Virus record (IMG/VR): IMGVR_UViG_3300032227_002278
Strand: one strand, 5' to 3'
DNA: 64,000 bases
From: an uncultured virus (IMG/VR IMGVR_UViG_3300032227_002278)
Lineage: Duplodnaviria > Heunggongvirae > Uroviricota > Caudoviricetes
Shown here: piece after piece, positions 35,877-62,066 of the stretch
How positions within the stretch are numbered: position 1 is the stretch's first letter
Layout of the letters: each line of letters begins with the position of its first letter
Position numbers and translations under genes: made by a program
Notes under the pieces: generated by a model
Told to the model about the DNA's origin: nothing
What the model saw: the letters and a program-made list of their open reading frames with translations, nothing else
The model's database searches: none

Positions 35877-35932
35877 CTCCCGGTGTGGGGCTGTATAATA
35901 CCTAGGTCACACCACCTAGGTTTTTTAAGGAG
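35877..35932 (+). ncRNA. Kissing-loop leader/attenuator RNA, copy 1
   Basis: CTCCCGGTGTGGGG...CCTAGGTCACACCACCTAGGTTTTTTAAGGAG. Confidence 0.6.
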
Positions 35933-35938
35933 TTGAAA

Positions 35939-36499
35939 ATGGCTACTAGAGGTACTTATCAGTTTATTGATGATTCTACTAAGACTACCATTTATGTTCA
36001 TTGGGACAATTATTTGGATGGTGCAGCAAAGTATTTTTATAATATGCTGACTAATCCCAGTAAAGGCAATTTGGCGACTCAGTTCATTAGAGCAGTTGAT
36101 AGTGCTGAAATAACAAAGTCTCATGCTCGTCATGGAGATACTGAATTTCAGTATAATATAAAAGGTTCTGATGGTGGTGCAGAACTTGTGGTCAATAGTC
36201 CATGCACTAATACAGTTGTGTATAGTGGCACAATTGTTGACTTTATTGAAAAGAATAATAATTTAATTGAAGGTTACAAGCCTATCAGGAAGTATGTCAA
36301 TGAGTGGGGTATTAGTAATTATATAAATGCTGATATGGCTAGAAAGATTATTGAAGACAAATTGAATACTATGGAAGTGTGGAAAGACAAAGATTCTTCT
36401 AACTGGAAGAGTTATGCAGAACATATTAAAACTATAGTAGAGTGTTTCCCAGAGTTGAAAGAGTATAAAGGAGTTATCAATGAACAAGCACACAAGTGA
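35939..36499 (+). CDS. Hypothetical phage protein (MATRG...YVHWDNY family)
   Basis: RBS; motif common in phage ORFs. Confidence 0.65.
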   Translation: MATRGTYQFIDDSTKTTIYVHWDNYLDGAAKYFYNMLTNPSKGNLATQFIRAVDSAEITKSHARHGDTEFQYNIKGSDGGAELVVNSPCTNTVVYSGTIVDFIEKNNNLIEGYKPIRKYVNEWGISNYINADMARKIIEDKLNTMEVWKDKDSSNWKSYAEHIKTIVECFPELKEYKGVINEQAHK

Positions 36500-37253
36500 A
36501 GTTATTTCTGCCAGTATTCAAGGGTTTGTGCCCATGCTCGGCGGCTTGCTGGTTGTAATTCTGCCCTTGATGGTATATTTTTCTGAAACAGGCTGGTACA
36601 GGGCAAACAAAGAAGCTTTGAATGAAAAAAAAACATACGAAGCCTTAATAGTTGAAACTAATGCCAAACAAGTTAAACTAGATCAAAGCATGAAAGCATT
36701 TAGTGATAACAATGAAAAGGCTATCATGGCCAAGACGGAATTTGATTTAAAACAAAAACAGTTAGTTGCGGACATTCGTGCTGAAAAATTAGATTTGCAG
36801 CGAGAACATGCAGATAAGTTAAATGCTTTGCAAGCAAAAATGGACGCTAAAGAAGCCGACTTAGAGAAAGCTAAAAAGAAAACTGATAAACTTTTGGCTG
36901 ATGCTCAAAAATTTATGGATACAGCAAAAACCTTGGAAGAAGAAGCAGACAAACAATTTTTGAAAAACAATGGAGATGGCGAAGCTATTGCCAATATGAT
37001 TACAGTATTAAAAGAAAATGCAGAAGCTTTAAGTAAACATTGCGACAATTATGACAAGACGGACGATCCGTTCTTCATAGATGTTATTGAAAAAAGAATT
37101 TTTCAAAGTTACAAAGTCATAGCAAATTCAACAAAAATTGCCAAAGAACTGAATTTAAAGTTCAACAATAAAAACCTTAACAATAGCTTAAACTTGGCAG
37201 ATGCTCAAATGGTTCGTGCTGCTAAAAAGCTTAGAGGTAATGTGCCTAAATAG
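36480..37253 (+). CDS. Membrane-anchored coiled-coil protein
   Basis: TM helix then long coiled coil. Confidence 0.65.
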   Translation: MNKHTSEVISASIQGFVPMLGGLLVVILPLMVYFSETGWYRANKEALNEKKTYEALIVETNAKQVKLDQSMKAFSDNNEKAIMAKTEFDLKQKQLVADIRAEKLDLQREHADKLNALQAKMDAKEADLEKAKKKTDKLLADAQKFMDTAKTLEEEADKQFLKNNGDGEAIANMITVLKENAEALSKHCDNYDKTDDPFFIDVIEKRIFQSYKVIANSTKIAKELNLKFNNKNLNNSLNLADAQMVRAAKKLRGNVPK

Positions 37254-37330
37254 CCGTGATAACACAATAATTTCAATAAGTTTGCATATCCACTTGTCCG
37301 TAAGGTTCACCAATATTAGGAGTTTAAGCT

Positions 37331-37582
37331 ATGTCTGAGAAGTTTGTAGTTAGAGTTGTTGTGGGTGGAGTGGGGTATGAAGGACCAGATATGTGGTTCG
37401 TTAAGGTTATTTGCAATCAAGAGCAGCTTGATGAAGGTCTGCACTATGAGGCAGCAAAGAATTGGGTTGGTGAGAACATACTGAATGCAGATGATATCAA
37501 TTGGGCTTGTGATGACAAAGACCCAGCTAAAGCTATCTTAGATTGTTTTAATTGGGATACTGCAAGGATCGTGAAGATTTGA
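37331..37582 (+). CDS. Hypothetical protein
   Basis: AGGAG RBS. Confidence 0.6.
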   Translation: MSEKFVVRVVVGGVGYEGPDMWFVKVICNQEQLDEGLHYEAAKNWVGENILNADDINWACDDKDPAKAILDCFNWDTARIVKI

Positions 37583-37633
37583 GAATTACGATAATTTTAA
37601 AGGATGTTGTTTTAGGTGTCGTGGAGGACAATT

Positions 37634-37930
37634 ATGAAAGACAGCGAGGTTGAGGTTGGATTTAGTGTCACTGGTTCCTTTTGGGTAGATCCAGAAAGGT
37701 TCACGGTTGAGAAGGATGCTGATGGGAATGTTGTGGCGTTGGTTCCAAAGTTGTATGGTGGGATGACTGCTAAATATCGTCTGACATTGGCGATTGAGAT
37801 TGAGGACAATCCTGAGCGGTTCCGAGTAATTTATAGTGAAAAGACTATGGCTGAAGAGTGTGGTCTTCAAGCCCTTAATTATGACTCGCTGGACTTCCAA
37901 ACCGGCGGTCAGTTGGATGAGGCTGTTTAG
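37634..37930 (+). CDS. Hypothetical protein
   Basis: Motif, GGAGG RBS, ATG. Confidence 0.6.
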   Translation: MKDSEVEVGFSVTGSFWVDPERFTVEKDADGNVVALVPKLYGGMTAKYRLTLAIEIEDNPERFRVIYSEKTMAEECGLQALNYDSLDFQTGGQLDEAV

Positions 37931-37961
37931 TATGTTTTTAACCAAATATAAGGAGCAAGCT

Positions 37962-38144
37962 ATGAGAGACAAGATTATTCAATTTGCAGTTAATTTCCTA
38001 AAGAGCAATATTGAAGATTCACAAGTAGAAGCAGCTCTTGCAGTCAACCTTGGATTGGCAGAGAATGAAGAGGACTATGATGGCGAGAGCTATGACAAGA
38101 TCGTAAAACTTCTTGAAGAAGCTACACAAACGACTGGCGGCTGA
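37962..38144 (+). CDS. Hypothetical protein
   Basis: AAGGAG RBS. Confidence 0.55.
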   Translation: MRDKIIQFAVNFLKSNIEDSQVEAALAVNLGLAENEEDYDGESYDKIVKLLEEATQTTGG

Positions 38145-38221
38145 TTCCTTCCCGGTGTTTTAAAAATTACGATAATTTTAAAGGATGTTGTTTTAGGTGT
38201 AGGATAAATGGAGGATTTGAT

Positions 38222-38470
38222 ATGTCTGAGATTAAGCTAAAAGATGGTGATTATTATTTACAGGATGGGGCTGCATGGTTGCGTATTAACAATGTTAGCA
38301 TTCGCATATATGCAACTACCAGTTCTGTTTCAGTAAAGTTATTGCCATTTAAGTTTGAGAATGAAGGCTCGCCTTTAGATGAGTGTAGCATTAGTTGGGA
38401 AGAAGTAGATGGTTATATTGAAGAAATTAATATAGAGAAGAAAATACAAGAAGAAGAAGATAGTAAATAA
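38222..38470 (+). CDS. Hypothetical protein
   Basis: Motif, GGAGG RBS. Confidence 0.6.
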   Translation: MSEIKLKDGDYYLQDGAAWLRINNVSIRIYATTSSVSVKLLPFKFENEGSPLDECSISWEEVDGYIEEINIEKKIQEEEDSK

Positions 38471-38520
38471 AGTTATTGATATGTTGTTTTTGCATATCAA
38501 CATTTAGAAAGGATGAAAAT

Positions 38521-38829
38521 ATGTTTAAAAATTTTTTATGTAAAGACAGCAGAATGTTTAACGATATTAAAGCAAGTGAAGTATTTCTTGTTAGTGATGA
38601 TGACAGTTATCAGTCTGGTATAAGGTATAAGTTTGGATTGAGTTATTTAAATCCATTTTCAAATATGTGGTCAGGTAGAGTTCATCCGAATATGTCACAT
38701 AATGTTTGGTTTAACAATTATTTTGAATCTTCTAAAGTTTTTGCATATAGTAGTGAAAATTGGGAATGGGTTTTGGAAAGTATATTGATTGGTCCTAATT
38801 GGAATAAGGACAGAGAGCAGTATACATGA
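38521..38829 (+). CDS. Hypothetical protein
   Basis: AAGGA RBS. Confidence 0.5.
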   Translation: MFKNFLCKDSRMFNDIKASEVFLVSDDDSYQSGIRYKFGLSYLNPFSNMWSGRVHPNMSHNVWFNNYFESSKVFAYSSENWEWVLESILIGPNWNKDREQYT

Positions 38830-38966
38830 ACCAGTTTGTTAGATGGTGTTTGGATGGATTACGATAATTTTTTGGGATGTTGTTTTAGTTGAAAAGGATT
38901 AATTTGAAGGTCTGATGGTGGATTTTTTCGAGTGTATCCTTTAATGGAATTTAAGGGGGAATAATT

Positions 38967-39575
38967 ATGCAGAAGAATGATGGGTTTGCGAAGTGGAAGT
39001 CTCGTTTAGATTTTTTCAAGACAGACATGGGTTTTGGACCTTTGAAACAATATCGAAATGAGGATGGGAATCTGCATCGGGATAATGGACCGGCGTGGAT
39101 ATCACCAACTAGGACTATTTGGTATCAGAATGGCAGGAAGCATGGTCCTGATGCTGACATTCATGGTAGTATTCATTATTACTATGAGAACATCAGAATT
39201 CCTCCTCATTACTATACCAAGCCAGAGTCTCTTACATTAGAAGAAGTATTGGGTCATACCAATGCAGAGTGCCGATATGTAGGTATGAAGGCATTAGGTA
39301 TGGAAAAGGTAATGAATCACAAGAAGGCTAAGATCATTCATAAGGATGATAGCAAAGGTCAGATTCTGTTTACTGTATCTGGCATATTTGATGAGCCCGT
39401 ATCTTTTGTAAAGGTAGTTAATAGTACTCAAGAGCCAGACGGATCATTCAAGGATTACTTTTTGTGTGTCCCACCTCCATCAGAAGGAATTACTGACTGT
39501 CAAAAAGCTGTCGCATGGACTTTCGGCTTCAGCCCAGACAAAGCTAAGGATTACCAACCAGAACAGGAGACTTAG
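38967..39575 (+). CDS. DUF6745-like protein with LHRxxGPA repeat
   Basis: LHRDNGPA; VNSTQEPDGSFKDYFLCVPP...AVAWTFG...Y.P..ET. Confidence 0.75.
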   Translation: MQKNDGFAKWKSRLDFFKTDMGFGPLKQYRNEDGNLHRDNGPAWISPTRTIWYQNGRKHGPDADIHGSIHYYYENIRIPPHYYTKPESLTLEEVLGHTNAECRYVGMKALGMEKVMNHKKAKIIHKDDSKGQILFTVSGIFDEPVSFVKVVNSTQEPDGSFKDYFLCVPPPSEGITDCQKAVAWTFGFSPDKAKDYQPEQET

Positions 39576-39584
39576 AAATATTTC

Positions 39585-40463
39585 ATGGGTGGAAAAAGAA
39601 AATTTACTATAGAAGAGGTTGTCCAAGTGTTCGCATCGAATGGTTGTGAATACTTGGATAACTTTTATGTTAGGGATTCTTATAAACATACTTACAGGTG
39701 TGTTTGTGGCAGAGTAGATACAATTCAATTTAAACACTTCAAAAGAGGTGTCAGGTGTGGTTGGTGTTCAAAAAATAAAAAATTAAACATTGATGTAATA
39801 AAAGAAAGATATAAAAGTTTTGGCTTCGTATTACTAGACATGGTTTATATAAATGCTAATCATGCATACAAAATTAGATGCAAATGTGGGCAAGATAGAA
39901 ATTGTAGTTTAGATAAGTTGCAAAAAGGTTCTTCTTTAGTTTGCAACAATTGTCTCAAAAAAACTAATTGGGACATTGACATAGTCAAAAATTATTTTGA
40001 GGCTAACAATTGTGTGTTTATTGACAATGTGTGGATTGGCGCTAATCATCCGCACAGATATCAATGTTCTTGTGGAAATGTTGGCACAATTAGAATGAGT
40101 CATTTTAAAAGAGGACATAGGTGTTCTTCTTGTGCAAAAAATGGGTTCAAGAAAGATAAGCCAGCTTACTTATACTTGATTGCCAGACCTAATCAATTTA
40201 AAATTGGAATATACAATATTGAATCTAAAAGAATAACGGAGCATAAAAGAAACGGATGGGATTTGATGGAGCAGAGATATTATGAAATTGGTGAAGAAGC
40301 TTATGATGAAGAACAACGAATTTTAGATATGATGGAAAATCAAAATATACCTTTGGGTGATGCAGCCTTTAGGGAACCATTTGATGGATATACAGAGGCA
40401 TGGAACAGTGTTGATTTAGAGGTGTGTTCATTTATAGAGTTATATGCAAAGCTTTCCATATGA
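39585..40463 (+). CDS. Zn-ribbon-repeat putative homing endonuclease (GIY-YIG-like C-terminus)
   Basis: Three CxCG...RCxxC repeats; PAYLYLI...KIGI...GYTEAW. Confidence 0.65.
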   Translation: MGGKRKFTIEEVVQVFASNGCEYLDNFYVRDSYKHTYRCVCGRVDTIQFKHFKRGVRCGWCSKNKKLNIDVIKERYKSFGFVLLDMVYINANHAYKIRCKCGQDRNCSLDKLQKGSSLVCNNCLKKTNWDIDIVKNYFEANNCVFIDNVWIGANHPHRYQCSCGNVGTIRMSHFKRGHRCSSCAKNGFKKDKPAYLYLIARPNQFKIGIYNIESKRITEHKRNGWDLMEQRYYEIGEEAYDEEQRILDMMENQNIPLGDAAFREPFDGYTEAWNSVDLEVCSFIELYAKLSI

Positions 40464-40532
40464 TAGGTTTGCATATCAGCAAGGAATTACGATAATTTTA
40501 AAGGGTATTGTTTTAGGTAGGAGGGCAAGCCG

Positions 40533-40973
40533 ATGTATGAAGACGAGCAGGAAGAAGAAGCTGTTGTGAAGACTCCTATGGAGTCTGTGGTGGAATTTTT
40601 ACAGCAGGATGATTTTGAGCAAGCGTTGAGAATGGTATGCCAGAAACCTGATAGTTTTAATCATGAAGAGAGAAAGAAGGTAGCTACTTATTGTTTAAGC
40701 AGTATGCCAGAGTTAGCAGAAGAAGTATTTACTATCAGCAAGGTTAAGAACGATGTTGATATGATGAAGTATGCATATCATCATGTCAATTTAACCACTA
40801 ATAACAAGTTAGTATATGCGATTGAATTGGGATTGGATGCTGTAGCAGAGAAGCTAGCTCTTATTGCTACTAATCTTGACTTTGCCATCTATAAGTGTAT
40901 GTTATTGCAGAATGGCGAATTAGGTCAAAAGATAGTGAGGATTAAAGAGCAGAAACAAGAACAAACTACTTAA
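40533..40973 (+). CDS. Hypothetical protein
   Basis: Motif, AGGAGG RBS. Confidence 0.65.
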   Translation: MYEDEQEEEAVVKTPMESVVEFLQQDDFEQALRMVCQKPDSFNHEERKKVATYCLSSMPELAEEVFTISKVKNDVDMMKYAYHHVNLTTNNKLVYAIELGLDAVAEKLALIATNLDFAIYKCMLLQNGELGQKIVRIKEQKQEQTT

Positions 40974-40982
40974 GGAATTATC

Positions 40983-41801
40983 ATGTCTGTCTATAACTTT
41001 AATTATAGTACATGGACAGAGGGTGCTAACTTATTCTCTACCTTGTGCCAAGAAGATAGGTATGATGACGCTGCCTATCTTATGTTAACCGATATTTCTT
41101 ATGAGGATTTTGACTGTGAAGATAGATTGAGATTTCATGGAATGTACGAAAGCAAAATTATATCGCCTTGTAATCCATATCTGTTTAGCATATTAAAGAT
41201 GTCAGCAGAGCCGGATTATAAAGATAACATTGCAGAGTATTTATCCAAAGTTGGAAATTTTTTAAAACCTTATAACAATTTTGACATAGCAATGTATTGT
41301 TGTACTGATTTTGAAAATGATATGTTATCTGTTATTATCGATAATTTTGACAAGACTTCTAATAAGATTCCACATAGGATTTGTTTTAGATGTTTAGATA
41401 GGTTTTTAAATGAAGATAAAACTGATTGCGATAAGAGATGGATTAGGCAGAGTTTGTCTAAATTGATTAGCAAGGCTATGAAGTTGCATATAAAGATAGA
41501 AGATTATGCAGATGAATATGTAAACAAGATATATTCTATCTTGTCACCATATTCAATTGATGTATATTTTATGATGGTTGCAGTATTTGGAGAGAAGAAG
41601 TTATTAGGTGTAGCTGAGAAAATGGCTAATCATTTTATTGAGATTGATGATTTGGAGAGTGGTAGGAAGTTTATTGAGTTATGTGAAGGAGTATTTAATT
41701 GTCAGAATACTTCGAATGTTATTAAGCCTATTATTAATATTCACAAAAAGAAGAATATTTCTCGGGTTTGGCGGTCAGATCGGAATTACGATAATTCTTA
41801 G
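40983..41801 (+). CDS. Hypothetical protein
   Basis: 272-aa ORF. Confidence 0.65.
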   Translation: MSVYNFNYSTWTEGANLFSTLCQEDRYDDAAYLMLTDISYEDFDCEDRLRFHGMYESKIISPCNPYLFSILKMSAEPDYKDNIAEYLSKVGNFLKPYNNFDIAMYCCTDFENDMLSVIIDNFDKTSNKIPHRICFRCLDRFLNEDKTDCDKRWIRQSLSKLISKAMKLHIKIEDYADEYVNKIYSILSPYSIDVYFMMVAVFGEKKLLGVAEKMANHFIEIDDLESGRKFIELCEGVFNCQNTSNVIKPIINIHKKKNISRVWRSDRNYDNS

Positions 41802-41968
41802 GGCTGTTCTTTTATGTGTCGGGTGTTGACGAGTTTTGGTTCTTTAAAGAATGGCAAGTCGGAATTACGATAATTCTGAAGGCTGTTCTTTTATGTGTCG
41901 GGTTTGGTGGTGTTGACGAGTAGTCAATGCTGCTTGTTGTTTGTTTATTTACTTTAGGAGGATATTTA

Positions 41969-43072
41969 ATGTCAAGGTCTAAGAGTTCGTCTACTGTTTT
42001 CATCGAAAAAGTTTTGATTGACAATCCCAACATTCGATACAATGATGTTGTGGCTATGGAAGAGTATAACAAAGGTGGTCATTCTTTTGACAATGCGTAT
42101 TTCAATGCTATCAAGTGTCGAATTAAGAAAGTGCAGTCTTATGTATCTACTGGTTCTGTGTCTGCTCCGTCTCATGTGATTAGTTCTGCTCCTGTAGATG
42201 GTAATGATAGTGAGTACAAGTATGATTCTGATACACAGGATTTGATTCCTGCTGTTGACCCTCACTATGTGATTAACGAGGATGCCGCAACATTCTTTGA
42301 GTTAGTCAAGAATATGTCTAACAACAAGAATGTTAATGTGCGTCTTGTTGGTCCGGCTGGTTGTGGTAAGACCAGTTTGGCTATGCAATATGCTGCTAGG
42401 CATAACTTGCCATGTTTTGTTCAGAACTGTGCGAATGTTCGTGAACCAAGAGATTGGTTTGGATATCGCAAGCTGGATGAGAATAAGAATCTGGCTTGGC
42501 ATGAGAGTTTGTTTGTCAAGATGATTGAGACTCCTAATGCTGTGATTGTGTTGGACGAAACTAATCGTTGTCCTATGCACACACTTAACACTCTATATCC
42601 TTTGCTTGACCATCGTAGGAATACATGGCTTGAAGAGGCTGGTAGAACGCTTCAGGTAGCAGAAGGTGTTACTTTCTGGGCTGCAATGAACGAGGGTAAT
42701 CAGTTTACTGGTACTACTCAACTTGATGAAGCATTCTCTGACCGAACTGGTCTGGTGATGGAATGTAAGTTCTTGTCATCAGATGATGAAGCAAAGGTCT
42801 TGCACAATCGAACTGGATTGACAAAGGACAGTTCTTTGCGTCTGGTAGAGATTGCAGAACAAGTGCGTAAGAAAGCGCAGCTTGATACTGGTGACTCTTT
42901 CAGTAAGGTGATATCTACTCGTATGCTGGAAGAAGCTGCTTCAGCTTTCGTAGTAGGTGGTCCTAAGACTATGCACTACACTCTGTTGAATCACTTCTCT
43001 GCTGCTGGTGGAGCAAGCTCTGAGAGGCAGAATCTACTCAAACTGCTCGTTGGTAAGTTTGGGACTCTGTAA
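41969..43072 (+). CDS. MoxR/CbbQ-type AAA+ ATPase
   Basis: GPAGCGKT, IVLDETNR, AAMN...Y/F.GT..LDEAFSDR, ISTRML. Confidence 0.9.
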   Translation: MSRSKSSSTVFIEKVLIDNPNIRYNDVVAMEEYNKGGHSFDNAYFNAIKCRIKKVQSYVSTGSVSAPSHVISSAPVDGNDSEYKYDSDTQDLIPAVDPHYVINEDAATFFELVKNMSNNKNVNVRLVGPAGCGKTSLAMQYAARHNLPCFVQNCANVREPRDWFGYRKLDENKNLAWHESLFVKMIETPNAVIVLDETNRCPMHTLNTLYPLLDHRRNTWLEEAGRTLQVAEGVTFWAAMNEGNQFTGTTQLDEAFSDRTGLVMECKFLSSDDEAKVLHNRTGLTKDSSLRLVEIAEQVRKKAQLDTGDSFSKVISTRMLEEAASAFVVGGPKTMHYTLLNHFSAAGGASSERQNLLKLLVGKFGTL

Positions 43073-43092
43073 TCTCTAGACTTGGATATATG

Positions 43093-43125
43093 CCCCTTGC
43101 TGGCTATAAACCAGCAAGGGGTTTT
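43093..43125 (+). terminator. Intrinsic terminator
   Basis: CCCCTTGCTGG-loop-CCAGCAAGGGG TTTT. Confidence 0.75.
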
Positions 43126-43293
43126 CTTATAAATATATATTTTGAAAAAATGTTTAGAATAAATTATGTTTTTTGAATCTTGTCCTATAATGGTAGTAGG
43201 AAGGAATAAGTTATTCCTTGGAATTACGATAATTCCGAAGCGTATTCTTTTATTTGTCAGGCGGGTTACTTAAAACTTAGAAGGAGGAATGTT

Positions 43294-45486
43294 ATGGTTA
43301 ATCAAGGTGATTTGTTTGGTGATGAGAATAATGAAGAGTTGGAGCGTCTTGCTGACGAGTTTGACAAGAATGATGATTATCTTCTAGAGAAGGAACTAGA
43401 AGAACAAGGTGGCAAGTCTTTCAATCCTGGTACTCATGGTATTCAAGAAAACCATCCTCTTCTGGATGGCTTCAACAAAGATACTGGACGATACGATACA
43501 ACTAACTATTGGGAAGGTGCTTACGGCAGCCGTCGTAAATATACCGACTCTTTACATACTGATAGCTGGAAAGTTACTCCTGTTAAGTCTACCAGCGAAT
43601 ACCTTCGTAACTCCTATTGGGGCAACAGCTGGTACTATGACAGCTATAGCAAGAAGGCTGACCAGAAAGCTCAAGTCCATGAAACTCTACATGAAGTTCT
43701 CAAGGAATTGAACAAGACCATTAACCTTACTTCAAACTCTAAAGACTCTGTTGAGTCTGTTATGAATGTGAAGTATTCTAATGGTGCTGTTATCAATGAC
43801 TTCGAGAGTAACACTCTTTACATATCGCCTAATGTGATGTTGAAAGATGATGATGAAGTTAGGTCTGGTGCAGACTATTATGAGTCTCTTGATGGTTTGA
43901 ATGGTCAAGCTATGTTGTGTTCCTTTATGAAGAAAGGAATTCATGCTGATGCTAATGCAGACTACAAGGAAGCTAAGGAATGGGCAGCAAGAAACATCTT
44001 CATGTGTGATATTCAAGCTAGTGCTGCTGCTGAGATTTTCAGTAAGTGGCCGGGCTTTATGAGTTATATCACAAGTCAGATGCAAGTATTTGGAGTTCAG
44101 AAGGATTATCTTCTGAAGAAGTTTAACCAATCTGTTATCTTGTTGGATGACTTGATTGAGACTTTGTGTTACAATCGTCTTGCTTCTGAAAAGGTTGATT
44201 ACACAATCTTCCATCCTGATATCGTGAAGAAGATGTTGTTGGCAGATAGGGACTTCAATCAGATGATTGATACTCCTTGCAAGTCAGAAGATAGGTTCAA
44301 GAAAGCTCAGCGTATCTACGAATCTATCAGGGATACGCTGAATCTTGAGAAAGCAGAACTTGAGGTTAAATGGAGTCAATCTGGATTATCACTTCCTGGT
44401 AAGTCTAGTGAAGGTGTATCTGGCGAAGGTACTCCTGTATCTGGTGATGATAATGAAGAGGTTGGTAATCCACAAGCTACCAATCAGATTGACAATAGTC
44501 CATCTGATGAGCAGCGTAGGTTTACTGGAGACAACTCCTATAACAACAAGATGGAAGTGGATGGGGATGTTGTATTCAATATCCTTGACCATAACAAGAA
44601 GTTGCGTGAAAGACTCAAGGAACTAGGAGATAAGCTGGCTTCTCCAGCTATATCTTCTGATGAGATTATCAACAAAGAAAAAGTAGTTTACAAGCTCTTG
44701 GTTCCACCTGTCAATGTGGAGACAATCAAGGCTTATGACGAATATGTCAAAATGAACAAAAAGAATATCAATGCAATTAAAGATGCAATGATGTTTCACA
44801 ACAACTATCCTTGGATTCCAAGCTATGGCTTGACTGATGGGGATATCGATGAACACGCTCTCTATAAGATGCACTTTGGAGAGTATGAGCGTTTGTTTGA
44901 AAGAAGGGACCAAGTTACTGAGAAAAGATATCATATCACTCTGGTAATTGACCAGTCTGGTTCAATGTCTGGTGACAAACTGGAACAAGCTAACAAGCTA
45001 TGTATCCTGTTCGCAGAAGCTCTCAAGTTCCTGCGTAATACAGAATACAGTATCTATGGCTTTGAAACCAGAGATATCAATACTTGGGTCTATAAGGATA
45101 AGCTCTACGATAAGCAGAAAGCTCTGATTGAGCCTACTGCTAATGGTGGAACTGCAATGGGGTATCATCTTGCTTCTATTGGAGACAAGGTGATTAACCA
45201 GTATAGTGACTTTGACAACAAGTTCATGTTTGTTATATGTGATGGTTCGCCAACTCATGGAGTAGACAATATGAATAGTTGTCAGTTTACTAATCACTCA
45301 ATCAAACTTTTGAGGAGGCAAGGTATTCAAGTTTATGGAATTGGTATCTTGAATGCTTTCCAAGAAAGGACTGGTAACGAGATCTTTGGTGAAGGCAACT
45401 TTACTGTGATTGATGATATCAAGGGTAGTTTGTCTATCCTGACTAACAGACTGAGGAAGTATCTGCAAAAGTCTTCTAAGGTCTGA
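43294..45486 (+). CDS. VWA-domain protein (CobT-like partner of the AAA ATPase)
   Basis: MIDAS LVIDQSGSM, GGT, ICDGSP, VYGIGI. Confidence 0.88.
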   Translation: MVNQGDLFGDENNEELERLADEFDKNDDYLLEKELEEQGGKSFNPGTHGIQENHPLLDGFNKDTGRYDTTNYWEGAYGSRRKYTDSLHTDSWKVTPVKSTSEYLRNSYWGNSWYYDSYSKKADQKAQVHETLHEVLKELNKTINLTSNSKDSVESVMNVKYSNGAVINDFESNTLYISPNVMLKDDDEVRSGADYYESLDGLNGQAMLCSFMKKGIHADANADYKEAKEWAARNIFMCDIQASAAAEIFSKWPGFMSYITSQMQVFGVQKDYLLKKFNQSVILLDDLIETLCYNRLASEKVDYTIFHPDIVKKMLLADRDFNQMIDTPCKSEDRFKKAQRIYESIRDTLNLEKAELEVKWSQSGLSLPGKSSEGVSGEGTPVSGDDNEEVGNPQATNQIDNSPSDEQRRFTGDNSYNNKMEVDGDVVFNILDHNKKLRERLKELGDKLASPAISSDEIINKEKVVYKLLVPPVNVETIKAYDEYVKMNKKNINAIKDAMMFHNNYPWIPSYGLTDGDIDEHALYKMHFGEYERLFERRDQVTEKRYHITLVIDQSGSMSGDKLEQANKLCILFAEALKFLRNTEYSIYGFETRDINTWVYKDKLYDKQKALIEPTANGGTAMGYHLASIGDKVINQYSDFDNKFMFVICDGSPTHGVDNMNSCQFTNHSIKLLRRQGIQVYGIGILNAFQERTGNEIFGEGNFTVIDDIKGSLSILTNRLRKYLQKSSKV

Positions 45487-45586
45487 TATCAAGATGGTGG
45501 GGGAAGATAGTTTCCCCCACCTCTTTTGAATTACGATAATTCCGAACTCTATTCTTTTAGGTGTAAGGAACAACACAAAGGAGTAT

Positions 45587-46024
45587 ATGATGTTGACTAA
45601 GAAGTTTATGCTTGCTGGTAAGGCTATCTGGACTTTGGGCGTTCCCGAAACCTTTCAGAAGGAAAAGGATTGCAAAAGCCACTATACTTTCAAGATTGCT
45701 AAAAAGAAAGATGCTGATATCTGGTTTGTTAATCTACTGACCGGACCAGACAACATGTCTAATTATACCTACATAGGTATGGTAAATTCTGCCACCGGCG
45801 AAGTTAATCTTACCCGCAATAGCAAGATGACTAAAGATAGCATTTGCTATAGGTTATTGAACAGAGTGATGTCTAGGGTATGGGCTGAGGAAGTGGAGAA
45901 GATTGTGGAGGCTGGGTTTACTCTTCAACATGAGGGTAAGTGTGGTCGTTGTGGTCGTAGGTTGACTACTCCAGAGTCTATTGCGTCTGGATTTGGACCG
46001 GAGTGTATTCAACTAATCGGTTAA
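45587..46024 (+). CDS. DUF6011-like Zn-finger protein
   Basis: HEGKCGRCGRRLTTPESIASGFGPEC. Confidence 0.8.
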   Translation: MMLTKKFMLAGKAIWTLGVPETFQKEKDCKSHYTFKIAKKKDADIWFVNLLTGPDNMSNYTYIGMVNSATGEVNLTRNSKMTKDSICYRLLNRVMSRVWAEEVEKIVEAGFTLQHEGKCGRCGRRLTTPESIASGFGPECIQLIG

Positions 46025-46087
46025 TTACGATAATTCTGAAGTCTGTTCTTTTAGGTGTAGGATAGTTTTAACAACAGGAGATGTAAA

Positions 46088-47251
46088 ATGTTTTTCAACA
46101 AGTCTTATCGTTACAATCAGTTAAGTAAGCTCATGGAGAAGGAGCTATATGCTCCTGCTTGCTCTCTAATGCTCATGGACAGCAAGAAGTCTGTATTCGA
46201 TAACAAGGTTCGCAAGAGAGTTTATGACTTTGTTAAGTCAAATTTTTCTGACAAGATAGATTCTTCTATTCTTAATGCCTTGCAAGCTAGTATTAGAGAC
46301 ACTGTATCTGTTACCGACTTACAATTTCTTCTTAAAGGAAATGATATAGTTTATAATAATGTTATTGCGGCTTATCAAATTGATAATGTCAGCATTGAAG
46401 CTTTATCTAATCTATGGAATAATTTGAGAAAAACTAGTAATAACTTATTTTATGAAGAAGATGTATATCGCATAGCTAAGAGATTTTATGATTATGCACA
46501 TACGAGAGCATATGATACCATAGTGTATATGCATAACAGTTTTAATCCTTCTATGGAGATTAATTTTGATATGTCTTCTTTCCCAGAGCAACAACTAATT
46601 ATTGCTAGATTGATTGCTTTGTATGAAATAAACAAAAGTCAAATTAGATTTAGTCGTTATGGAGTACAACAGCAGGAAGTTAATAAAGAACCATTGCAAT
46701 GGAATTTGGAGAAATGTTCTTCTGCTATTTTTGATAACAATCCATTGAATCGTTATAGTTTTCAATATATACGAATCATTGGCGAAGAAAAGATGATGCC
46801 TGCTGTTATCGATTATCTTGATAAGATGCAGACTAATCCATTGTTTGCTGAAAAGCATTATAATGAAATTGTATTATCTTGTTTGCAACATGGATTAAAC
46901 AGGATTGCATCTTATATCATGAAGAGGCGTGATATTAAGGCTATTACAAAGTTGTGCAAGGATTTGATTATCAGTTGGAATCCTCAATATACATTGAAAG
47001 AACCTCAATCTGTTCTTTTTGCTGTTGCTGCAAAAGATTTAACTACTGCTGCAAGAGAGTCTCTCTTTGAGGCTATGCAGAATATGTCTAGAGAGATTGA
47101 TAACATGACTGAGTGGCTTAACAATCCAAACTTCAATGTAATCTTGCACAAGATTCATTGGATTGAAACTATCAATAAGATGCTAGATGAGAAACGACCT
47201 GAGAAAATCAAGATCGCTAAACCTAGAACATCTAAGAAGAAGCTTGCTTGA
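46088..47251 (+). CDS. Hypothetical protein
   Basis: 387-aa ORF with motif and RBS. Confidence 0.7.
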   Translation: MFFNKSYRYNQLSKLMEKELYAPACSLMLMDSKKSVFDNKVRKRVYDFVKSNFSDKIDSSILNALQASIRDTVSVTDLQFLLKGNDIVYNNVIAAYQIDNVSIEALSNLWNNLRKTSNNLFYEEDVYRIAKRFYDYAHTRAYDTIVYMHNSFNPSMEINFDMSSFPEQQLIIARLIALYEINKSQIRFSRYGVQQQEVNKEPLQWNLEKCSSAIFDNNPLNRYSFQYIRIIGEEKMMPAVIDYLDKMQTNPLFAEKHYNEIVLSCLQHGLNRIASYIMKRRDIKAITKLCKDLIISWNPQYTLKEPQSVLFAVAAKDLTTAARESLFEAMQNMSREIDNMTEWLNNPNFNVILHKIHWIETINKMLDEKRPEKIKIAKPRTSKKKLA

Positions 47252-47257
47252 TATACC

Positions 47258-47296
47258 AAAGCCTAGCACCATCTATCTTGATGGTGCTAGGCTTTT
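47258..47296. terminator. Bidirectional intrinsic terminator
   Basis: AAAGCCTAGCACCATC / GATGGTGCTAGGCTTTT. Confidence 0.8.
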
Positions 47297-47321
47297 ATTC
47301 AGGGGTTGTACTATTTTAAAG

Positions 47322-50614: not shown

Positions 50615-50699
50615 CATGACCCTGGGGGGAGCTATACTCCCCCCTTCTCCTCATATCCCCCCTATATTCTTAGGGGGGTCTTTTATATCAAGAGGAATC

Positions 50700-51359: not shown

Positions 51360-51415
51360 TTTTGTGGTGTTCTTTGGTTCGCTGTCCTATAATGAAAGTG
51401 AAAGAGAGGTTCAAG

Positions 51416-51745: not shown

Positions 51746-51909
51746 CATTTGATATCAACTTATAAAAAACCCCTAGAGCTAATAACTCTAGGGGTTTTTT
51801 ATTACGATAATTCTGAAGGCTGTTCTTTTGGTTGTCGGGTTTGGCTCTAATGTTACAACGGAAAGTTGGAGCTGAGTTTGTTGTGTCGGGTTTAACTAAG
51901 GAGGTTTGT

Positions 51910-52233
51910 ATGGCTCGTAGTAAGAAAGTTGACCGTGTTGATTTGAGTGGTATTTCTGGCGAGAAGGTTCCTTCTCGTCAGCAGGTTCTCCAGCAGTATC
52001 TGGGGCAACCATTGGCAGTACTTTGTGCCCGGTTTGCATATCGTGGCATTCTGTCTGCCGTAGGTGATGATTATCTGATTTTGGCTCAACCAAGGGCTGT
52101 TGAAAGCTCTGGTGCTTCCAGCTCAGAGCGTCCAAACTCAGAAGACCCTATTGGGTCATCTATTATGGTATCTCTTGATAGTTTGGAATTGGTATACCAA
52201 CCCAACTGGTGCTTTGCTAGCCTGGATGACTAA
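51910..52233 (+). CDS. Putative Sm/LSm-fold protein
   Basis: YLGQPLAVLCARFAYRGILSAVGDDYLIL resembles Sm1; IMVSLDSLELV resembles Sm2. Confidence 0.5.
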   Translation: MARSKKVDRVDLSGISGEKVPSRQQVLQQYLGQPLAVLCARFAYRGILSAVGDDYLILAQPRAVESSGASSSERPNSEDPIGSSIMVSLDSLELVYQPNWCFASLDD

Positions 52234-52237
52234 TAAA

Positions 52238-52298
52238 CTTCCCGGTGTGGGGAATAAGTTATACCCTAGGGCACACCACCTAGGTTTTTTTAAGGAGG
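52238..52298 (+). ncRNA. Kissing-loop leader/attenuator RNA, copy 2
   Basis: TTCCCGGTGTGGGGAA...CCTAGGGCACACCACCTAGGTTTTTTTAAGGAGG. Confidence 0.6.
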
Positions 52299-52306
52299 AT
52301 TTTGTT

Positions 52307-52846
52307 ATGAGTAATCTTGTGAGTAATTTCAAATTATCTATCTCTTCTAACAATAGTGGTACTTTGGATGTTGAACTTTTTATAGAAATTAATGGATGGG
52401 ATACCATCCTTATATATTGGCTGGAAAATTGCACTGACTACGAATCAAAATATGGAATTGGTATTCCGCTTGACATTGTTTGTGGTGAAGATTGGCCAAA
52501 CTACCCATTAGTTGGATTTAAAGATAAAGATGATAAGAAAGCCTTTCCTAAAAAAGGAAAGACTATAAGGGCTAGGGAATTAGATTCAAATGATAAAAAT
52601 ATTTCTCACAAATATATGTTATGTATTGATGAAGAGGCAGTAGATGAGATGACAGCGGAATGTTTGTCACATCTATTACAATTGCCTACAACTGATTGCA
52701 TTGATAACATCGATACTCTGACCGGACTATACATGGGACAAGATGTCACTTTGAGTTTGAATGATATTTCTCACGAAAATCTTTGTGGTATTTTGGATAT
52801 TCTACGAAAGGCTTGTTCTGACGACGAGGTTCCTGCAAGTTATTAA
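52307..52846 (+). CDS. Hypothetical protein
   Basis: AAGGAGG RBS. Confidence 0.6.
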   Translation: MSNLVSNFKLSISSNNSGTLDVELFIEINGWDTILIYWLENCTDYESKYGIGIPLDIVCGEDWPNYPLVGFKDKDDKKAFPKKGKTIRARELDSNDKNISHKYMLCIDEEAVDEMTAECLSHLLQLPTTDCIDNIDTLTGLYMGQDVTLSLNDISHENLCGILDILRKACSDDEVPASY

Positions 52847-52852
52847 TTAATA

Positions 52853-52911
52853 CTCCCGGTGTGGGGATATAACTTAACCTAGGGCACACCACCTAGGTTT
52901 TTTTTAAGGAG
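52853..52911 (+). ncRNA. Kissing-loop leader/attenuator RNA, copy 3
   Basis: CTCCCGGTGTGGGGA...CCTAGGGCACACCACCTAGGTTTTTTTTAAGGAG. Confidence 0.6.
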
Positions 52912-52920
52912 ATGTAATCC

Positions 52921-53544
52921 ATGCGAGAAAGAACAATAACTATGAAAGTTAATTTAGAGTCTCTTGAAAACAGAATCACTCCAGCTTCTATCGAAATTGG
53001 AGGATCTTCTAATTCAGTATTGATTATTAGAGATAGTGCTATTTTGAATGTAAATTCTGTAAACCAAAATCTAATTACTATCAATGGAAATAATTATAAT
53101 GTTCCAAGTAGTATTAGAAATATAAATGTTTATGGAAGCAATTATAATGATTCGATTAATCTAAAGAATTCTAATAAGGTTTGTTTTGTTGATGGTGGCA
53201 ATGGTAATGATGTTATAATTGGCTCAAATAACAATGATTTGTTATGGGGCGGTATAGGAAACGATACCATTAGCGGAGAAGGTGGAAACGATCAGGTTGC
53301 CGGTGGTTCTGGCAATGATAAGTTATTCGGAAATGATGGTAATGATAATATTGACGGGGGAAGTGGCAACGACCTTATCGTAGGTGGCAAAGGTGTTGAC
53401 AAATTAATAGCCTATGATTGCTCCGCACTATATTGCATTGATGAAGTATGGACCGATGATATCGGTGTCATAACTTCAGTATTTGCAGACTTGGTTTATT
53501 TTAATAGAAGTTTAGATTGGATCAATGGTTATAAAAGGAGTTGA
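52921..53544 (+). CDS. RTX (hemolysin-type Ca-binding) repeat protein with planctomycete LExLExR N-terminal motif
   Basis: LESLENRITPA; GGxGND repeats. Confidence 0.85.
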   Translation: MRERTITMKVNLESLENRITPASIEIGGSSNSVLIIRDSAILNVNSVNQNLITINGNNYNVPSSIRNINVYGSNYNDSINLKNSNKVCFVDGGNGNDVIIGSNNNDLLWGGIGNDTISGEGGNDQVAGGSGNDKLFGNDGNDNIDGGSGNDLIVGGKGVDKLIAYDCSALYCIDEVWTDDIGVITSVFADLVYFNRSLDWINGYKRS

Positions 53545-53618
53545 ATCAAAGGCAATCCAGAATAGGTTACAACATAAAGTTGGAGCTGAGTTTGTTGTGT
53601 CAACCAAGGAGGCTAGTG

Positions 53619-54086
53619 ATGCATAAGTCAAGAGTCATTGATGAAATATTGGATGTTTTTTCCCGTCACAATGAACTTTGTGACCAAGATTTAGCTGATT
53701 TTACCAAAGGAAACATTAATCCTAACTCCGTACGCTCCTCTAGAATTAAACTAGAAGAAAAAGGATTTATCACCAAAACCGAAAAGCGGCTAAATACTAA
53801 CGCAACTAGAGAATGTATGCATTACAAAATTACTAAGAAAGGTCTTTCTAAAAACAAACCAATCAAAAAGATTGGTAGACCTAGCAAATGTAATCCCCAA
53901 GATGTAATCGCTGCCTATAACAAAGTCGGTAGAGTTAAAGGCTGGGGAAATATTATATCCAAAATGTTCGATGTCTCAGCAGCATCTATCTACGCTTGCG
54001 TAGCTAAATACGGCAAAGATATTCCAAAACAAAAGATTAATAAGAAACATCTGTGCTTCCAAGTGTTTGCAAGAATGGAATATTAA
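53619..54086 (+). CDS. Winged-helix-like DNA-binding protein
   Basis: NSVRSSRIKLEEKGFI; C-terminal HTH-like segment. Confidence 0.5.
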   Translation: MHKSRVIDEILDVFSRHNELCDQDLADFTKGNINPNSVRSSRIKLEEKGFITKTEKRLNTNATRECMHYKITKKGLSKNKPIKKIGRPSKCNPQDVIAAYNKVGRVKGWGNIISKMFDVSAASIYACVAKYGKDIPKQKINKKHLCFQVFARMEY

Positions 54087-56180: not shown

Positions 56181-56265
56181 GCTATCGTGGCGGAACAGGC
56201 AGACGCAACAGACTTAAAATCTGTCGGGATTATATCCCGTACCAGTTCGATTCTGGTCGATAGCA
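56181..56265 (+). tRNA. trnL: tRNA-Leu(UAA)
   Basis: ACAGA-CTTAAAA-TCTGT; long variable arm; TTCGA T-loop. Confidence 0.93.
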
Positions 56266-60250: not shown

Positions 60251-60304
60251 TTCCAGACCTCATTCTTTTAGGTGTCACCGGGGTGGTGACAAGGAGGAAC
60301 TAAA

Positions 60305-60619
60305 ATGTTTGGCGAACCTATCTTTTCTTATACCGCTCAAGATGCTTTAGATGATGGGGTGTTTCAGCAACCTTTCCCCAAGGAATATCCTGGTGTACTG
60401 CTTACAGAGGCTGTAAGCACGGCTTGCTTAACTAAAAATGATGGAAGGACATTTAACCAATGCGCCTTTCCTCTGGTTATGGACGCTGTAATGGCTGTTC
60501 AAGCCAAAAAGAATCCCAAAGATGGTTTCTGGAAGCTGGAAGAAACTGTCGCTGGAACTGTTTGGATTTTTCCAAATGAGTTTGGTTCTATCACAATTAT
60601 GAAACCAGAGGAATATTGA
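60305..60619 (+). CDS. Hypothetical protein (YTxxxAxxDG...TIMxPEEY, DUF6573-like)
   Basis: Motif, RBS, recognisable termini. Confidence 0.6.
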   Translation: MFGEPIFSYTAQDALDDGVFQQPFPKEYPGVLLTEAVSTACLTKNDGRTFNQCAFPLVMDAVMAVQAKKNPKDGFWKLEETVAGTVWIFPNEFGSITIMKPEEY

Positions 60620-60795
60620 TGGATATTGTATATGTTGAATATGCTCCCCTTAAAGAGTATGAGGTGACTTATACTCTCAAGGGGAAGAAGTATCAAGATG
60701 TTGTCCGAGCAAACTCTAGCACAGATGCTAGAGAACTTGTTAAGACAAGATATAAAGATGCTCGTATTATTTCAGTTAGGGAAACAAAGAAATAG
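60619..60795 (+). CDS. Small hypothetical protein (58 aa, below cutoff)
   Basis: MDIVYVEYAPLKEYEVTY...VRETKK, TGATG-coupled. Confidence 0.55.
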   Translation: MDIVYVEYAPLKEYEVTYTLKGKKYQDVVRANSSTDARELVKTRYKDARIISVRETKK

Positions 60796-60934
60796 GAGGA
60801 TATATGGGGTTTGCAATTGGTGTTGTAGCTGGTCTTGTTTTTATTGCAGCATTAGGAAATATAAAAGTTGAGGAAAGGAATTAGATTACGATAATTCTGT
60901 AGTATAGTCTTTCAAGTGTTAAAAGGAGGAAAAA

Positions 60935-61486
60935 ATGAACAGGAAGATGGTAGACGACAAGTATTTCAACAAATTTATATACGATAGACTTCAGAAGATA
61001 ACTGATGCCATCGTTGTTTGCAAAACACTTGCTGTCAAGTATCCAGAGGTTCCACTTGGTTCATTTGATTTAGAATATATATTCAGAATTAGAAGTATGA
61101 TTCCTTCAGGTGTATTTCCTGCAGCAGTGATTTACGCTGTTGGGAAGAATCCTCTTGCTCCTGTTGAAGATATATTTGATATTTTCATTGATTATATATT
61201 TGAATTTCGTGCTCATATGGCTGGCTGTTGCTATGATTGTTGGGAAAATGTTTATGATATTGATGAATATTCCTTTGTTCTTCATAAGAAGATATGGAAT
61301 AAAGCTGCCAAAAAGCAGAAAGAGCATTTTCTTTGCATCGAATGTATAGAAGACAGGCTCAAAAGGGAGTTGGAACCAGAGGATTTTAATTGGGAAGTTC
61401 CACTAAATGGTCCCGATGAAATTCGTAGCAAAAGGCTTGAATCAAGAATGTATGGCGAAGATTACGATGAATGTTGGTACTGTTAG
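60935..61486 (+). CDS. Hypothetical protein with C-terminal Zn-binding domain
   Basis: CYDC...LCIECIEDRLKREL.PEDF. Confidence 0.65.
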   Translation: MNRKMVDDKYFNKFIYDRLQKITDAIVVCKTLAVKYPEVPLGSFDLEYIFRIRSMIPSGVFPAAVIYAVGKNPLAPVEDIFDIFIDYIFEFRAHMAGCCYDCWENVYDIDEYSFVLHKKIWNKAAKKQKEHFLCIECIEDRLKRELEPEDFNWEVPLNGPDEIRSKRLESRMYGEDYDECWYC

Positions 61487-61497
61487 GTGTGACAATT

Positions 61498-61956
61498 ATG
61501 AATATATTCGCTCTTTCAAAAGACCATTTAGAATGTGCTATGTGGCACAATAATAAACATTGTTCTAAAATGATTTTAGAACACACTCAAATGTTATGCA
61601 CGACACTTAATTTTTTAGGTGTAGACTCACCATATCGTTCTGTTCATAAAAATCATCCATGTAGAATATGGACAGGAACTAATAGAGCTAATTTTGTTTG
61701 GCTTTGTGAACTTACATTTTATTTGGGGGAGGAATTTACATTTCGATATGGCAAGAAACATAAAAGTGTAGAGGTTGCAAATTTCTGCTTTAAACATAAA
61801 GATGTTTTGCCAGAGGGGGAATTAACAAAGTTTGCTTTGGCTATGCCAGATGAGTATAAAGTTTCATGTTCTATTGAATCTTATAGAAATTATTATAAAG
61901 GTGCCAAAAAACATTTGGCAAATTGGGGTCCAAGAGAAAAACCATACTGGTATTAA
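61498..61956 (+). CDS. Pyrimidine dimer DNA glycosylase/DenV-like protein
   Basis: MNIFAL...KHCSKMILEHTQML...HKNHPC.IW...AMPDEYK...SYRNYY. Confidence 0.8.
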   Translation: MNIFALSKDHLECAMWHNNKHCSKMILEHTQMLCTTLNFLGVDSPYRSVHKNHPCRIWTGTNRANFVWLCELTFYLGEEFTFRYGKKHKSVEVANFCFKHKDVLPEGELTKFALAMPDEYKVSCSIESYRNYYKGAKKHLANWGPREKPYWY

Positions 61957-62017
61957 GTTTTTTTTCTTGGAAGAAACGACTTGTTCCAGACTTTGTCCTA
62001 TGATATAAGTGTGAGCT

Positions 62018-62066
62018 ACCTGGTGCGAGGTTGTGTTTAGTAATCGGACGCACCTTATCCGATTGC
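62018..62066 (+). ncRNA. Covariant kissing-loop RNA, copy 4
   Basis: ACCT-GGTGCG-AGGT and GTAATCGGA-CGCACCTTA-TCCGATTGC. Confidence 0.5.

Follow-up and report, generated by a model that had tools for sequence, protein, structure and literature searches.

What is the short leader that recurs between genes of an uncultured virus of the class Caudoviricetes, and why does it stand where the neighboring genes differ from phage to phage? The question is posed by a 64,000-nucleotide stretch of IMG/VR record IMGVR_UViG_3300032227_002278 (the whole stretch is referred to here as the window), in which an original prediction had described intergenic copies of two hairpins with mutually complementary loops. 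We give about even chances to the proposal that this is a cis-acting structured mRNA element of uncultivated freshwater jumbo (myovirus-like) phages, acting both as a portable intercistronic leader and as a recombination handle. The structure is documented by comparison among loci, while the function is put forward as a proposal.

Three intergenic copies had been predicted at 35877, 52238, and 52853, and pattern searches bear them out on the plus strand. With up to two mismatches allowed, TCCCGGTGTGGGG matches three times, at 35878, 52240, and 52854 (three or more matches in 0 of 100 shuffles), and with up to three mismatches CCTAGGNCACACCACCTAGG also matches three times, at 35901, 52265, and 52878 (0 in 100 shuffles). 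Copy 1 (35879 to 35920; 54.5 bits with covariance model CM R1) comprises hairpin 1 (H1; CCC at 35879-81, loop GGTGTG at 35882-87, GGG at 35888-90), a linker (35891-35900), and hairpin 2 (H2; CCTAGG at 35901-06, loop TCACACCA at 35907-14, CCTAGG at 35915-20), followed by T6 (35921-26), a Shine-Dalgarno (SD) sequence (35927-32), and an ATG at 35939. Copy 2 (52241 to 52284; 61.2 bits) has the same parts, with H1 at 52241-52252 (loop 52244-49), linker at 52253-64, H2 at 52265-52284 (CACACC at 52272-77), T7 at 52285-91, SD at 52292-98, and ATG at 52304, as does copy 3 (52855 to 52897; 64.3 bits), with H1 at 52855-52866 (loop 52858-63), linker at 52867-77, H2 at 52878-52897 (CACACC at 52885-90), T8 at 52898-52905, SD at 52906-11, and ATG at 52921. 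As predicted, the H1 loop is complementary to CACACC in the H2 loop, and in each of these copies the U tract leads into AAGGAG(G) and the start codon. The linkers, 10, 12, and 11 nt long, are unlike in sequence, whereas the loop motifs are constant, again as had been claimed.

The divergent copy 4 (62019 to 62063, plus strand) agrees with its earlier description as an element with different stems, the same geometry, a GGTGCG/CGCACC loop pair, and no U tract. Its H1 consists of CCT (62019-21), GGTGCG (62022-27), and AGG (62028-30), its linker spans 62031-42, and its H2 consists of ATCGGA (62043-48), loop CGCACCTTA (62049-57), and TCCGAT (62058-63), with an SD-like AAGGAAG at 62072-78 and an ATG at 62089. 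It scores 34.1 bits with CM R1, a model whose training set included it. A scan by geometry alone was used, demanding a 3-bp hairpin with a 5- to 7-nt loop, a 6- to 20-nt linker, a hairpin of at least 5 bp with a 7- to 10-nt loop, and a 6-nt Watson-Crick match between the loops with at least four G/C. On the plus strand of the window it returns four sites, exactly copies 1 to 4, whereas 60 dinucleotide shuffles of the window give a mean of 0.05 and a maximum of 1 on both strands, with a loop within one base of GGTGTG in 0 of 60. Against this background, copy 4 is no chance look-alike. CM R1 finds no copy in the window beyond these four, the next best hit being antisense with an E value of 0.95. 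All four copies lie on the gene strand, directly 5' of the SD site.

To judge from all instances collected, H1 has a 3- to 5-bp stem and a 6-nt loop, and H2 has a 5- to 8-bp stem and a 7- to 8-nt loop (9 nt in copy 4). The linker, mostly A-rich, measures 10 to 13 nt in the common type and 8 to 16 nt in variants. Six bases of loop 2 are complementary to all six of loop 1, forming an intramolecular kissing complex, and in all variants loop 2 retains an unpaired A on the 3' side of its kissing bases.

About 50 further copies were found in related freshwater phage contigs. Metagenome contigs were searched with one pattern scan in which H2 and loop 2 were fixed and H1 lay outside the pattern, giving 57 stretches in 45 distinct contexts. 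Although H1 was not asked for, exact CCCGGTGTGGGG stands upstream of H2 in 36 of the 45, and another 4 have an altered H1 stem with GGTGTG intact (one with an extra T), so that all 40 family contexts keep this loop; the remaining 5 have no H1 and look unrelated. The linkers of the 36 exact contexts are 10 to 13 nt long and comprise 29 distinct sequences. A conserved 5' flank, TAATTTnnTAC, accompanies the cassette. Two genome bins (G003 and G004) each carry the H2 pattern on one phage-like contig (G003:C35 and G004:C1), and CM R1 recovers only these pattern-found copies among the 150 of about 1,100 first-look candidates that were scored per bin. The original prediction had suggested building a covariance model and searching related phages; the copies found in related contigs do include ones with covarying loops, as set out below.

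Within IMG/VR, the element occurs on only one contig, G001 (181 kb), where two copies 414 nt apart flank one small gene. Six of the eight blastn matches between the window and this contig are the element itself (79 to 89% identity over 55 to 74 nt), which indicates that the element is better kept than the genes. A search of IMG/VR for CCTAGG-N8-CCTAGG-YTTT hairpins returned 84 loci, and outside G001 these are unrelated terminators. One such terminator-like hairpin, CCTAGG-TTTAATTA-CCTAGG with a T tract and a conserved upstream TAATTAAA, recurs there in several small viral contigs (L017, L025, L033, L065, L067, L071, and L081).

Seven loop pairs are found: GGUGUG/CACACC, GGUGCG/CGCACC, GGUGCG/CGCACU, GGUACG/CGUACU, GCCGUG/CACGGC, GCCAUG/CAUGGC, and AGCGCA/UGCGCU. 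The variants come from the flanks of related loci and have the same architecture with a different sequence, the stems differing too. CCC-GCCGTG-GGG is coupled with CCCTAGT-CACGGCA-ACTAGGG (L106, L124 [twice]), CCT-GCCATG-AGG with CCCCAGA-CATGGCA-TCTGGGG (L112), ACCCA-AGCGCA-TGGGT with CCAAG-GTGCGCTA-CTTGG (L101, L118, L152), and TCC-GGTACG-GGA with CCCAAGG-CGTACTA-CCTTGGG (L104). The loop pair of window copy 4 recurs on other stems at L146:4704-4749, as CCAC-GGTGCG-GTGG with CCCAAGA-CGCACCA-TCTTGGG. A GGTGCG loop is combined with a CGCACTA loop in L120 (twice), and the common loops are carried on a CCAAGG/CCTTGG stem in L114. L104 and L120 have G.U as their first kissing pair.

A strict descriptor of the element yields 48 sense-strand instances in 533,920 nt (the window plus related loci), from 69 raw hits; 20 dinucleotide shuffles gave 0.9 hits on average and 4 at most. 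In an unbiased test, two-hairpin candidates were taken regardless of loop complementarity and the common type was excluded. Fully complementary loops (6/6) are seen in 12 of 376 configurations, representing 7 distinct elements, compared to 0 of 376 when loop 1 is shuffled; at five of six complementary bases the numbers are 14 and 6, and three such elements are family members with a G.U pair.

In an alignment of 53 sequences, changes on both sides occur in all six kissing pairs, and 99.4% of cells are paired, a percentage that is partly built in because the descriptors used to select the instances require pairing. Both-sided changes are also seen in three of three H1 pairs and in four of six H2 pairs; in the MAFFT alignments, the H2 pairs of variants with 7-nt loops are shifted by one column and count as unpaired. 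The observed covariation score is reached in 0 of 500 shuffles, and slid controls score far lower. Pair counts were also made on a 46-sequence alignment; copy 4 is misaligned in alignment A4, and four common-type copies have a weakened H1 stem. G.U occurs at the first kissing pair in four sequences of the 53-sequence alignment, one being the misaligned copy 4 row, and U.G occurs in H1 in five sequences of the 46-sequence alignment, both of which are consistent with the gene strand only. Taken by itself, the common element has a nested minimum-free-energy fold made up of H1 and H2, and nearest-neighbor energies of the loop duplexes range from -5.6 to -9.3 kcal/mol.

Because the loop pairs vary, the stems differ, all six kissing pairs change on both sides, and some pairs are G.U, sequence comparison gives good support to a structured, sense-strand kissing-hairpin RNA. 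Watson-Crick complementarity of the loops is kept by compensatory change, the defining property of an intramolecular kissing-loop RNA, and the original prediction of loop-loop pairing with covariation thus gains seven loop-pair variants in homologues. We also considered whether neighboring elements avoid sharing a loop code and rejected this, as adjacent copies of the same type occur in the window, G001, G003, L100, L107, L117, and L151.

The element had also been described as belonging to no recognized family, and this holds at both stringencies of search. At gathering thresholds, Rfam 15 finds only a tRNA (56181-56265) in the whole window, and in E-value mode, applied to 52200-52940 of the window and to locus L002, nothing credible falls on the element, the best overlapping hit being antisense, with 15.1 bits against a 45-bit threshold and an E value of 3.3. 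No report was found in the open-access papers searched for the motif strings or for kissing-loop or jumbo-phage repeat descriptions. A similar layout is that of the guanidine-II riboswitch (mini-ykkC), which has two tandem hairpins with kissing loops upstream of an SD sequence and invariant, ligand-binding ACGR tetraloops. Both have two small hairpins, a short linker, and a loop-loop contact directly before the ribosome-binding site. However, the loops of the element are GGTGTG and NCACACCA plus covarying variants rather than ACGR, measure 6 and 7 to 8 nt (9 nt in copy 4), and form six Watson-Crick pairs with the sequence free as long as it is complementary. A six-base-pair loop-loop helix is also formed by the HIV-1 DIS, TAR-TAR*, and ColE1 RNA I/RNA II complexes, each between two molecules. 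As in those complexes, one loop is fully paired and the other has flanking unpaired purines (the 3' A in the element), whereas the kiss of the element is intramolecular and lies in a phage mRNA leader.

Sequence comparison further shows the element to be a breakpoint at which related phages carry different neighboring genes, a role that the original prediction had not foreseen. Copies 2 and 3 flank a variable gene cassette (52304 to 52846, plus strand) encoding a 180-aa product with no Pfam or PHROG hit and no IMG/VR relative. In three DNA runs from related strains, contigs match the window as far as position 52302, across the upstream gene and copy 2, then carry another gene, with no cover at 52349-52836, and resume at copy 3, and one related-strain contig has an extra segment between two copy 2-like elements. 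The gene upstream of copy 2 is also kept in G003:C35, where three elements separated by other genes are followed by homologues of window genes from 54.8 to 59.7 kb, and in G004:C1, where one element is followed by different downstream content. When the flanks of the 49 instances with usable flanks were clustered, five upstream clusters had more than one downstream partner and four downstream clusters had more than one upstream partner. The window gene ending at 52233 belongs to a cluster with six downstream partners, joined once via the GCCATG variant, and one downstream gene follows the common type in L146 but the GCCGTG variant in L124. At L116 the flanks are those of window copy 1 and the linker is different.

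Could the folded DNA strand itself be the substrate, as in integron attC sites, with a recombinase recognizing it and moving cassettes while the RNA has no role? Structure is conserved and sequence variable, and single small genes are flanked by copies with cassette content differing among strains, all of which speaks for such a single-stranded DNA site. attC sites work with a nearby tyrosine integrase in cassette exchange and are single long imperfect hairpins with extrahelical bases, and REP elements are chromosomal host repeats that protect mRNA 3' ends; like the element, both are repeated intergenic structures whose structure is better kept than their sequence. In contrast, the element consists of two short hairpins, and a Pfam scan finds no integrase domain, of integron type or other, among the 83 window open reading frames, the sole recombinase domain being a serine resolvase beside TnpB at 8492-10070; nor is it, like REP, a chromosomal repeat of a host. 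The element is moreover tied to the SD site and gene strand, crossovers seem to lie inside it as well as to both sides, as in homologous exchange, the same gene can follow different element types, and the linker is swapped at otherwise identical loci (copy 1 versus L116). A DNA recombination site of this kind is thus highly improbable.

The closest counterparts of the element as a genomic device are the promoter-early stem-loop cassettes (PeSLs) of T4-type phages, which combine a strong sigma-70-like promoter (-35 N17 -10) with one stem-loop, in the passages of two reports that describe them (PMC2839356, PMC4122927). According to the same passages, PeSLs resemble the element in being short repeated intergenic cassettes with a stem-loop that span the interval between an upstream stop codon and the SD and start codon of the next gene. 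Like the element, they border small genes of unknown function and lie at insertion, deletion, or replacement boundaries of related phages, where they provide homology for modular shuffling. We find that the motif is new as an RNA family and, as a genomic device, is a variant of the T4-type mobile regulatory cassette.

The element could itself be a composite of promoter and stem-loop of the PeSL type, with transcripts starting inside H2. Copy 1 contains TTTATA-17-TATAAT, the linkers are A/T-rich with frequent AATAA, and PeSLs behave alike in genomes to the extent that these two reports (PMC2839356, PMC4122927) cover it. A sigma-70-like promoter, taken as 9 of 12 matches with A2 and T6 of a -10 box in the linker, is present in only 5 of 48 copies, copy 1 included (1.4% of 960 control positions). 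Promoters of the PeSL type are thus confined to these few copies, whereas two hairpins with covarying complementary loops are general. Linkers are 10 to 13 nt long, and some of those in variants are G/C-rich, such as GTTCCACC and AGGCATC. A promoter would also leave the covariation between the two loops unexplained.

In addition, the phage appears to have a repeated promoter-like motif of a different sequence, ATTACGATAAT, with 27 matches in the window at up to one mismatch compared to 2.05 expected. Of these, 24 are on the plus strand, between 35176 and 63947 (for example 51801-51811), and the others are on the minus strand at 2083, 17041, and 21498. The plus-strand copies run into a conserved TCTGAAG..TTCTTTTAGGTGT, then an SD and a start codon, and several stand directly after long G/C-rich terminators. 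From sequence, ATTACGATAAT probably serves this phage as its own promoter and leader. G001, G003:C35, and G004:C1 have next to none of it (0 to 1 copies each), and it occurs in none of the four element-bearing spacers of the window, the nearest copies being at 35608 and 37585, 51801 and 54719, and 60885 and 62515. Since the spacers lack it, the window copies of the element are probably inside operons and transcribed by read-through. At the junction orthologous to copy 1 in G002, a 155-kb relative, the promoter-like ATTACGATAAT takes the place of the element, which speaks for a promoter role. On balance, a promoter-based composite is very unlikely.

The U tract, which had been described as part of the motif, is only in part a feature of it. 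It is T6 to T8 in copies 1 to 3 and is not constant, as H2 is followed by at least five Ts in 23 of 48 copies, by four in 7, and by three or fewer in 18. The candidate counterpart of the terminator-capable stem-loop of PeSLs is H2, which is present in all copies; the G/C-rich hairpin plus U tract of an intrinsic terminator is seen in copies 1 to 3, all listed by the terminator scan, and is not seen in copy 4. A plain intrinsic terminator would consist of H2 and its U tract, with H1 and the loop complementarity incidental, and the scan together with the 23 copies speaks for it. Intrinsic terminators, including tandem-hairpin ones, share with the element the H2 and T6 to T8 of copies 1 to 3 and of about half of all copies, but here the tract is often absent, altogether so in copy 4, the H2 loop is unusually large, and it is paired with a hairpin upstream. 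Despite lying outside the selection pattern, H1 and loop 1 are kept, and the loops covary. Furthermore, the canonical terminators of this phage do not look like the element: their G/C-rich stems are longer and their loops small, and several lie directly before the promoter-like motif. A plain terminator is likewise very unlikely.

The spacing on the upstream side suggests what we regard as the main rival, a translation-coupled switch. An upstream stop codon lies 3 to 12 nt before H1 in 38 of the 45 measurable copies and 24 to 40 nt before it in the other 7, and by a simple rule an SD plus start codon follows H2 within 12 to 25 nt in 41 of 46 copies (none found in 2 of 48). A ribosome at the upstream stop would unwind H1, which is short and thus easily melted, and break the kiss; the state of the kiss would then set termination at H2 or access to the SD, tying downstream expression to upstream translation. 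The narrow stop-to-H1 distance fits this, as does the location in junctions without a promoter-like motif. Precedents are the footprint of the ribosome, which extends beyond the A site, and the IncI-alpha repZ pseudoknot. In the IncI-alpha/IncB repZ/repA systems, coupling depends on a pseudoknot, upstream translation termination controls the fold, and there is a single dedicated site. There, as in the element, a hairpin loop pairs with a distant sequence near the ribosome-binding site, whereas the element is a repeated mobile module, with no SD-sequestering inhibitory helix seen. Nested folds of eight leaders reveal no conserved alternative fold that sequesters the SD or supplies an anti-SD, and long-range pairings differ among copies. 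The seven distant stops, and copy 4 at about 60 nt from its annotated upstream gene, do not suit the switch, and the tight spacing may just reflect compact phage genomes or the co-carried 5' flank. We consider the switch unlikely overall.

Taken further, the same observations would make every cassette junction a translation-sensing attenuator of an undescribed kind, with the self-folding module a universal plug for foreign genes. A ribosome stopping 3 to 12 nt before H1 would melt it and free H2 from the kiss. If so, an inserted gene would be transcribed and translated in proportion to the translation of its upstream neighbor, and the loop 'codes', at least seven and interchangeable, would be an RNA-level counterpart of integron attC sites. 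The chance that this holds seems to us small.

An RNA processing site would account for the intercistronic position in another way. A host or phage ribonuclease could cut the coaxial stack (15 to 18 bp) or the exposed A/U-rich linker, separating the cistrons and leaving hairpin-protected ends, much as T7 RNase III sites and the preferences of RNase E would suggest. A single-stranded A-rich linker between two helices and a compact pseudo-continuous helix (H1, kissing helix, and H2) would suit such a cut, although some variant linkers are G/C-rich and the stack falls short of the length usual for RNase III substrates. We consider a processing site quite unlikely.

The original prediction had put forward termination, RNA stability, and translation side by side as possible functions. 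The reading that we favor at even chance, a portable leader and recombination handle, combines a structural and a genomic part. Through the kiss, the weak H2 with its large loop would be held in a closed, compact domain. In copies with a U tract, this domain could work as a leaky intrinsic terminator or attenuator and could also cap the 3' end of the upstream message. In every copy it would prevent the leader from mispairing with foreign sequence around it and leave the U/A-rich SD region open, so that the next gene might be translated independently of its context. At the same time, the module of about 45 nt, being nearly identical in many places and genomes, would offer recombination a stretch of homology by which single small genes are inserted, deleted, or exchanged, in the manner of PeSL cassettes.

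Several findings weigh against this proposal. With three or fewer Ts in 18 copies, termination cannot be the common function, and since the window copies lie in junctions without a promoter-like motif, strong termination at T7 or T8 would silence the downstream genes. Nested folds of whole leaders have weak Z-scores (-0.2 to -3.1), and the paired percentage, as stated above, is partly a product of selection. In one metatranscriptome run (8% of sampled words), a 224-nt contig lies inside the upstream gene and a 35-nt piece at 53566-53600; neither shows RNA ends or has a bearing on function, and stretches left uncovered in that run carry no weight. The element is also dispensable. The whole of G002 has none, CM R1 finding no copy there, the orthologues of gene 35939-36499 in G002 (83% amino acid identity) and G001 have no element upstream, and the site orthologous to copy 4 in G004:C1 is without one. 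Finally, diverged phages could share a nearly identical common type because it spread recently and not because of what it does.

These data add a compact, covariation-supported RNA motif that is absent from Rfam, and because its six-pair intramolecular loop-loop helix can be read from sequence variation, it offers a clean test case for pseudoknot-aware structure prediction. Giant phages of uncultivated freshwater hosts appear to plug single genes into operons via standardized leader modules, extending the idea of mobile regulatory cassettes beyond the sigma-70 promoter-based PeSLs of T4-type phages. If the module insulates translation or tunes read-through, it would be a natural portable intercistronic part available in several orthogonal versions.

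The window looks like part of a large phage genome. Its first part (1-32 kb) has mainly minus-strand genes at about 31% G+C, including methyltransferases, three Dam-type methylases, a SNF2 helicase, an RCC1-repeat protein, and TnpB with a serine resolvase, whereas 32-64 kb has plus-strand genes at about 37% G+C, including another TnpB, Hsp20, a CobS-like AAA ATPase, a VWA protein, and many small genes without a family. A megablast of window positions 35000-54000 finds no close relative among GenBank phages. The syntenic relative G004:C1 (271 kb), a contig assigned to the bin of a metagenome-assembled genome, has genes for a tail sheath, a T4-type baseplate protein, DNA polymerase III alpha, RecA, DnaB, ribonucleotide reductase, and PhoH, which indicates a jumbo, myovirus-like lineage. 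Sequencing runs that share parts of the window are labeled as freshwater or lake metagenomes. G003 is labeled Phycisphaerales and G004 Acidimicrobiaceae, and these bin labels were rejected as an unreliable guide to the host. At L163:7500-8573, G004:C1 encodes a DUF1559 protein with a prepilin-type N-terminal methylation motif, from a family typical of Planctomycetota; together with the related contig binned with a Phycisphaerales genome, this is a weak hint of the host.

Other features of the window were noted. Two TnpB-like genes with a Cas12f1-like TNB domain lie at 8492-10070 (minus strand), following a serine-resolvase-type gene as in IS607-like elements, and at 32263-33390 (plus strand), the latter with an OrfB_IS605 domain. 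Three genes for D12-class N6-adenine DNA methyltransferases, all on the minus strand, fall within 12 kb (18099-18947, 20584-21423, and 29551-30396), and their neighbors encode the SNF2 helicase, a staphylococcal-nuclease homologue, and a DUF5131 protein. The tRNA gene at 56181-56265 (plus strand, 55.7 bits in Rfam) sits within the plus-strand gene array. Downstream of copy 3, the 207-aa product of gene 52921-53544 (plus strand) carries RTX calcium-binding nonapeptide repeats (HemolysinCabind, E value of 1.2e-17). A second repeated leader, TTACAAC..AAAGTTGGAGCTGAGTTTGTTGTGTC, stands at 51852-51890 and 53566-53601, just before an SD and start codon, and the true starts of its genes are likely 51911 and 53620. 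The summed contig depth over this leader reaches about 350 compared to about 12 around it, and a joint of 51887 to 53566 occurs in two runs, so that it may be another recombination-prone repeat or an assembly collapse.

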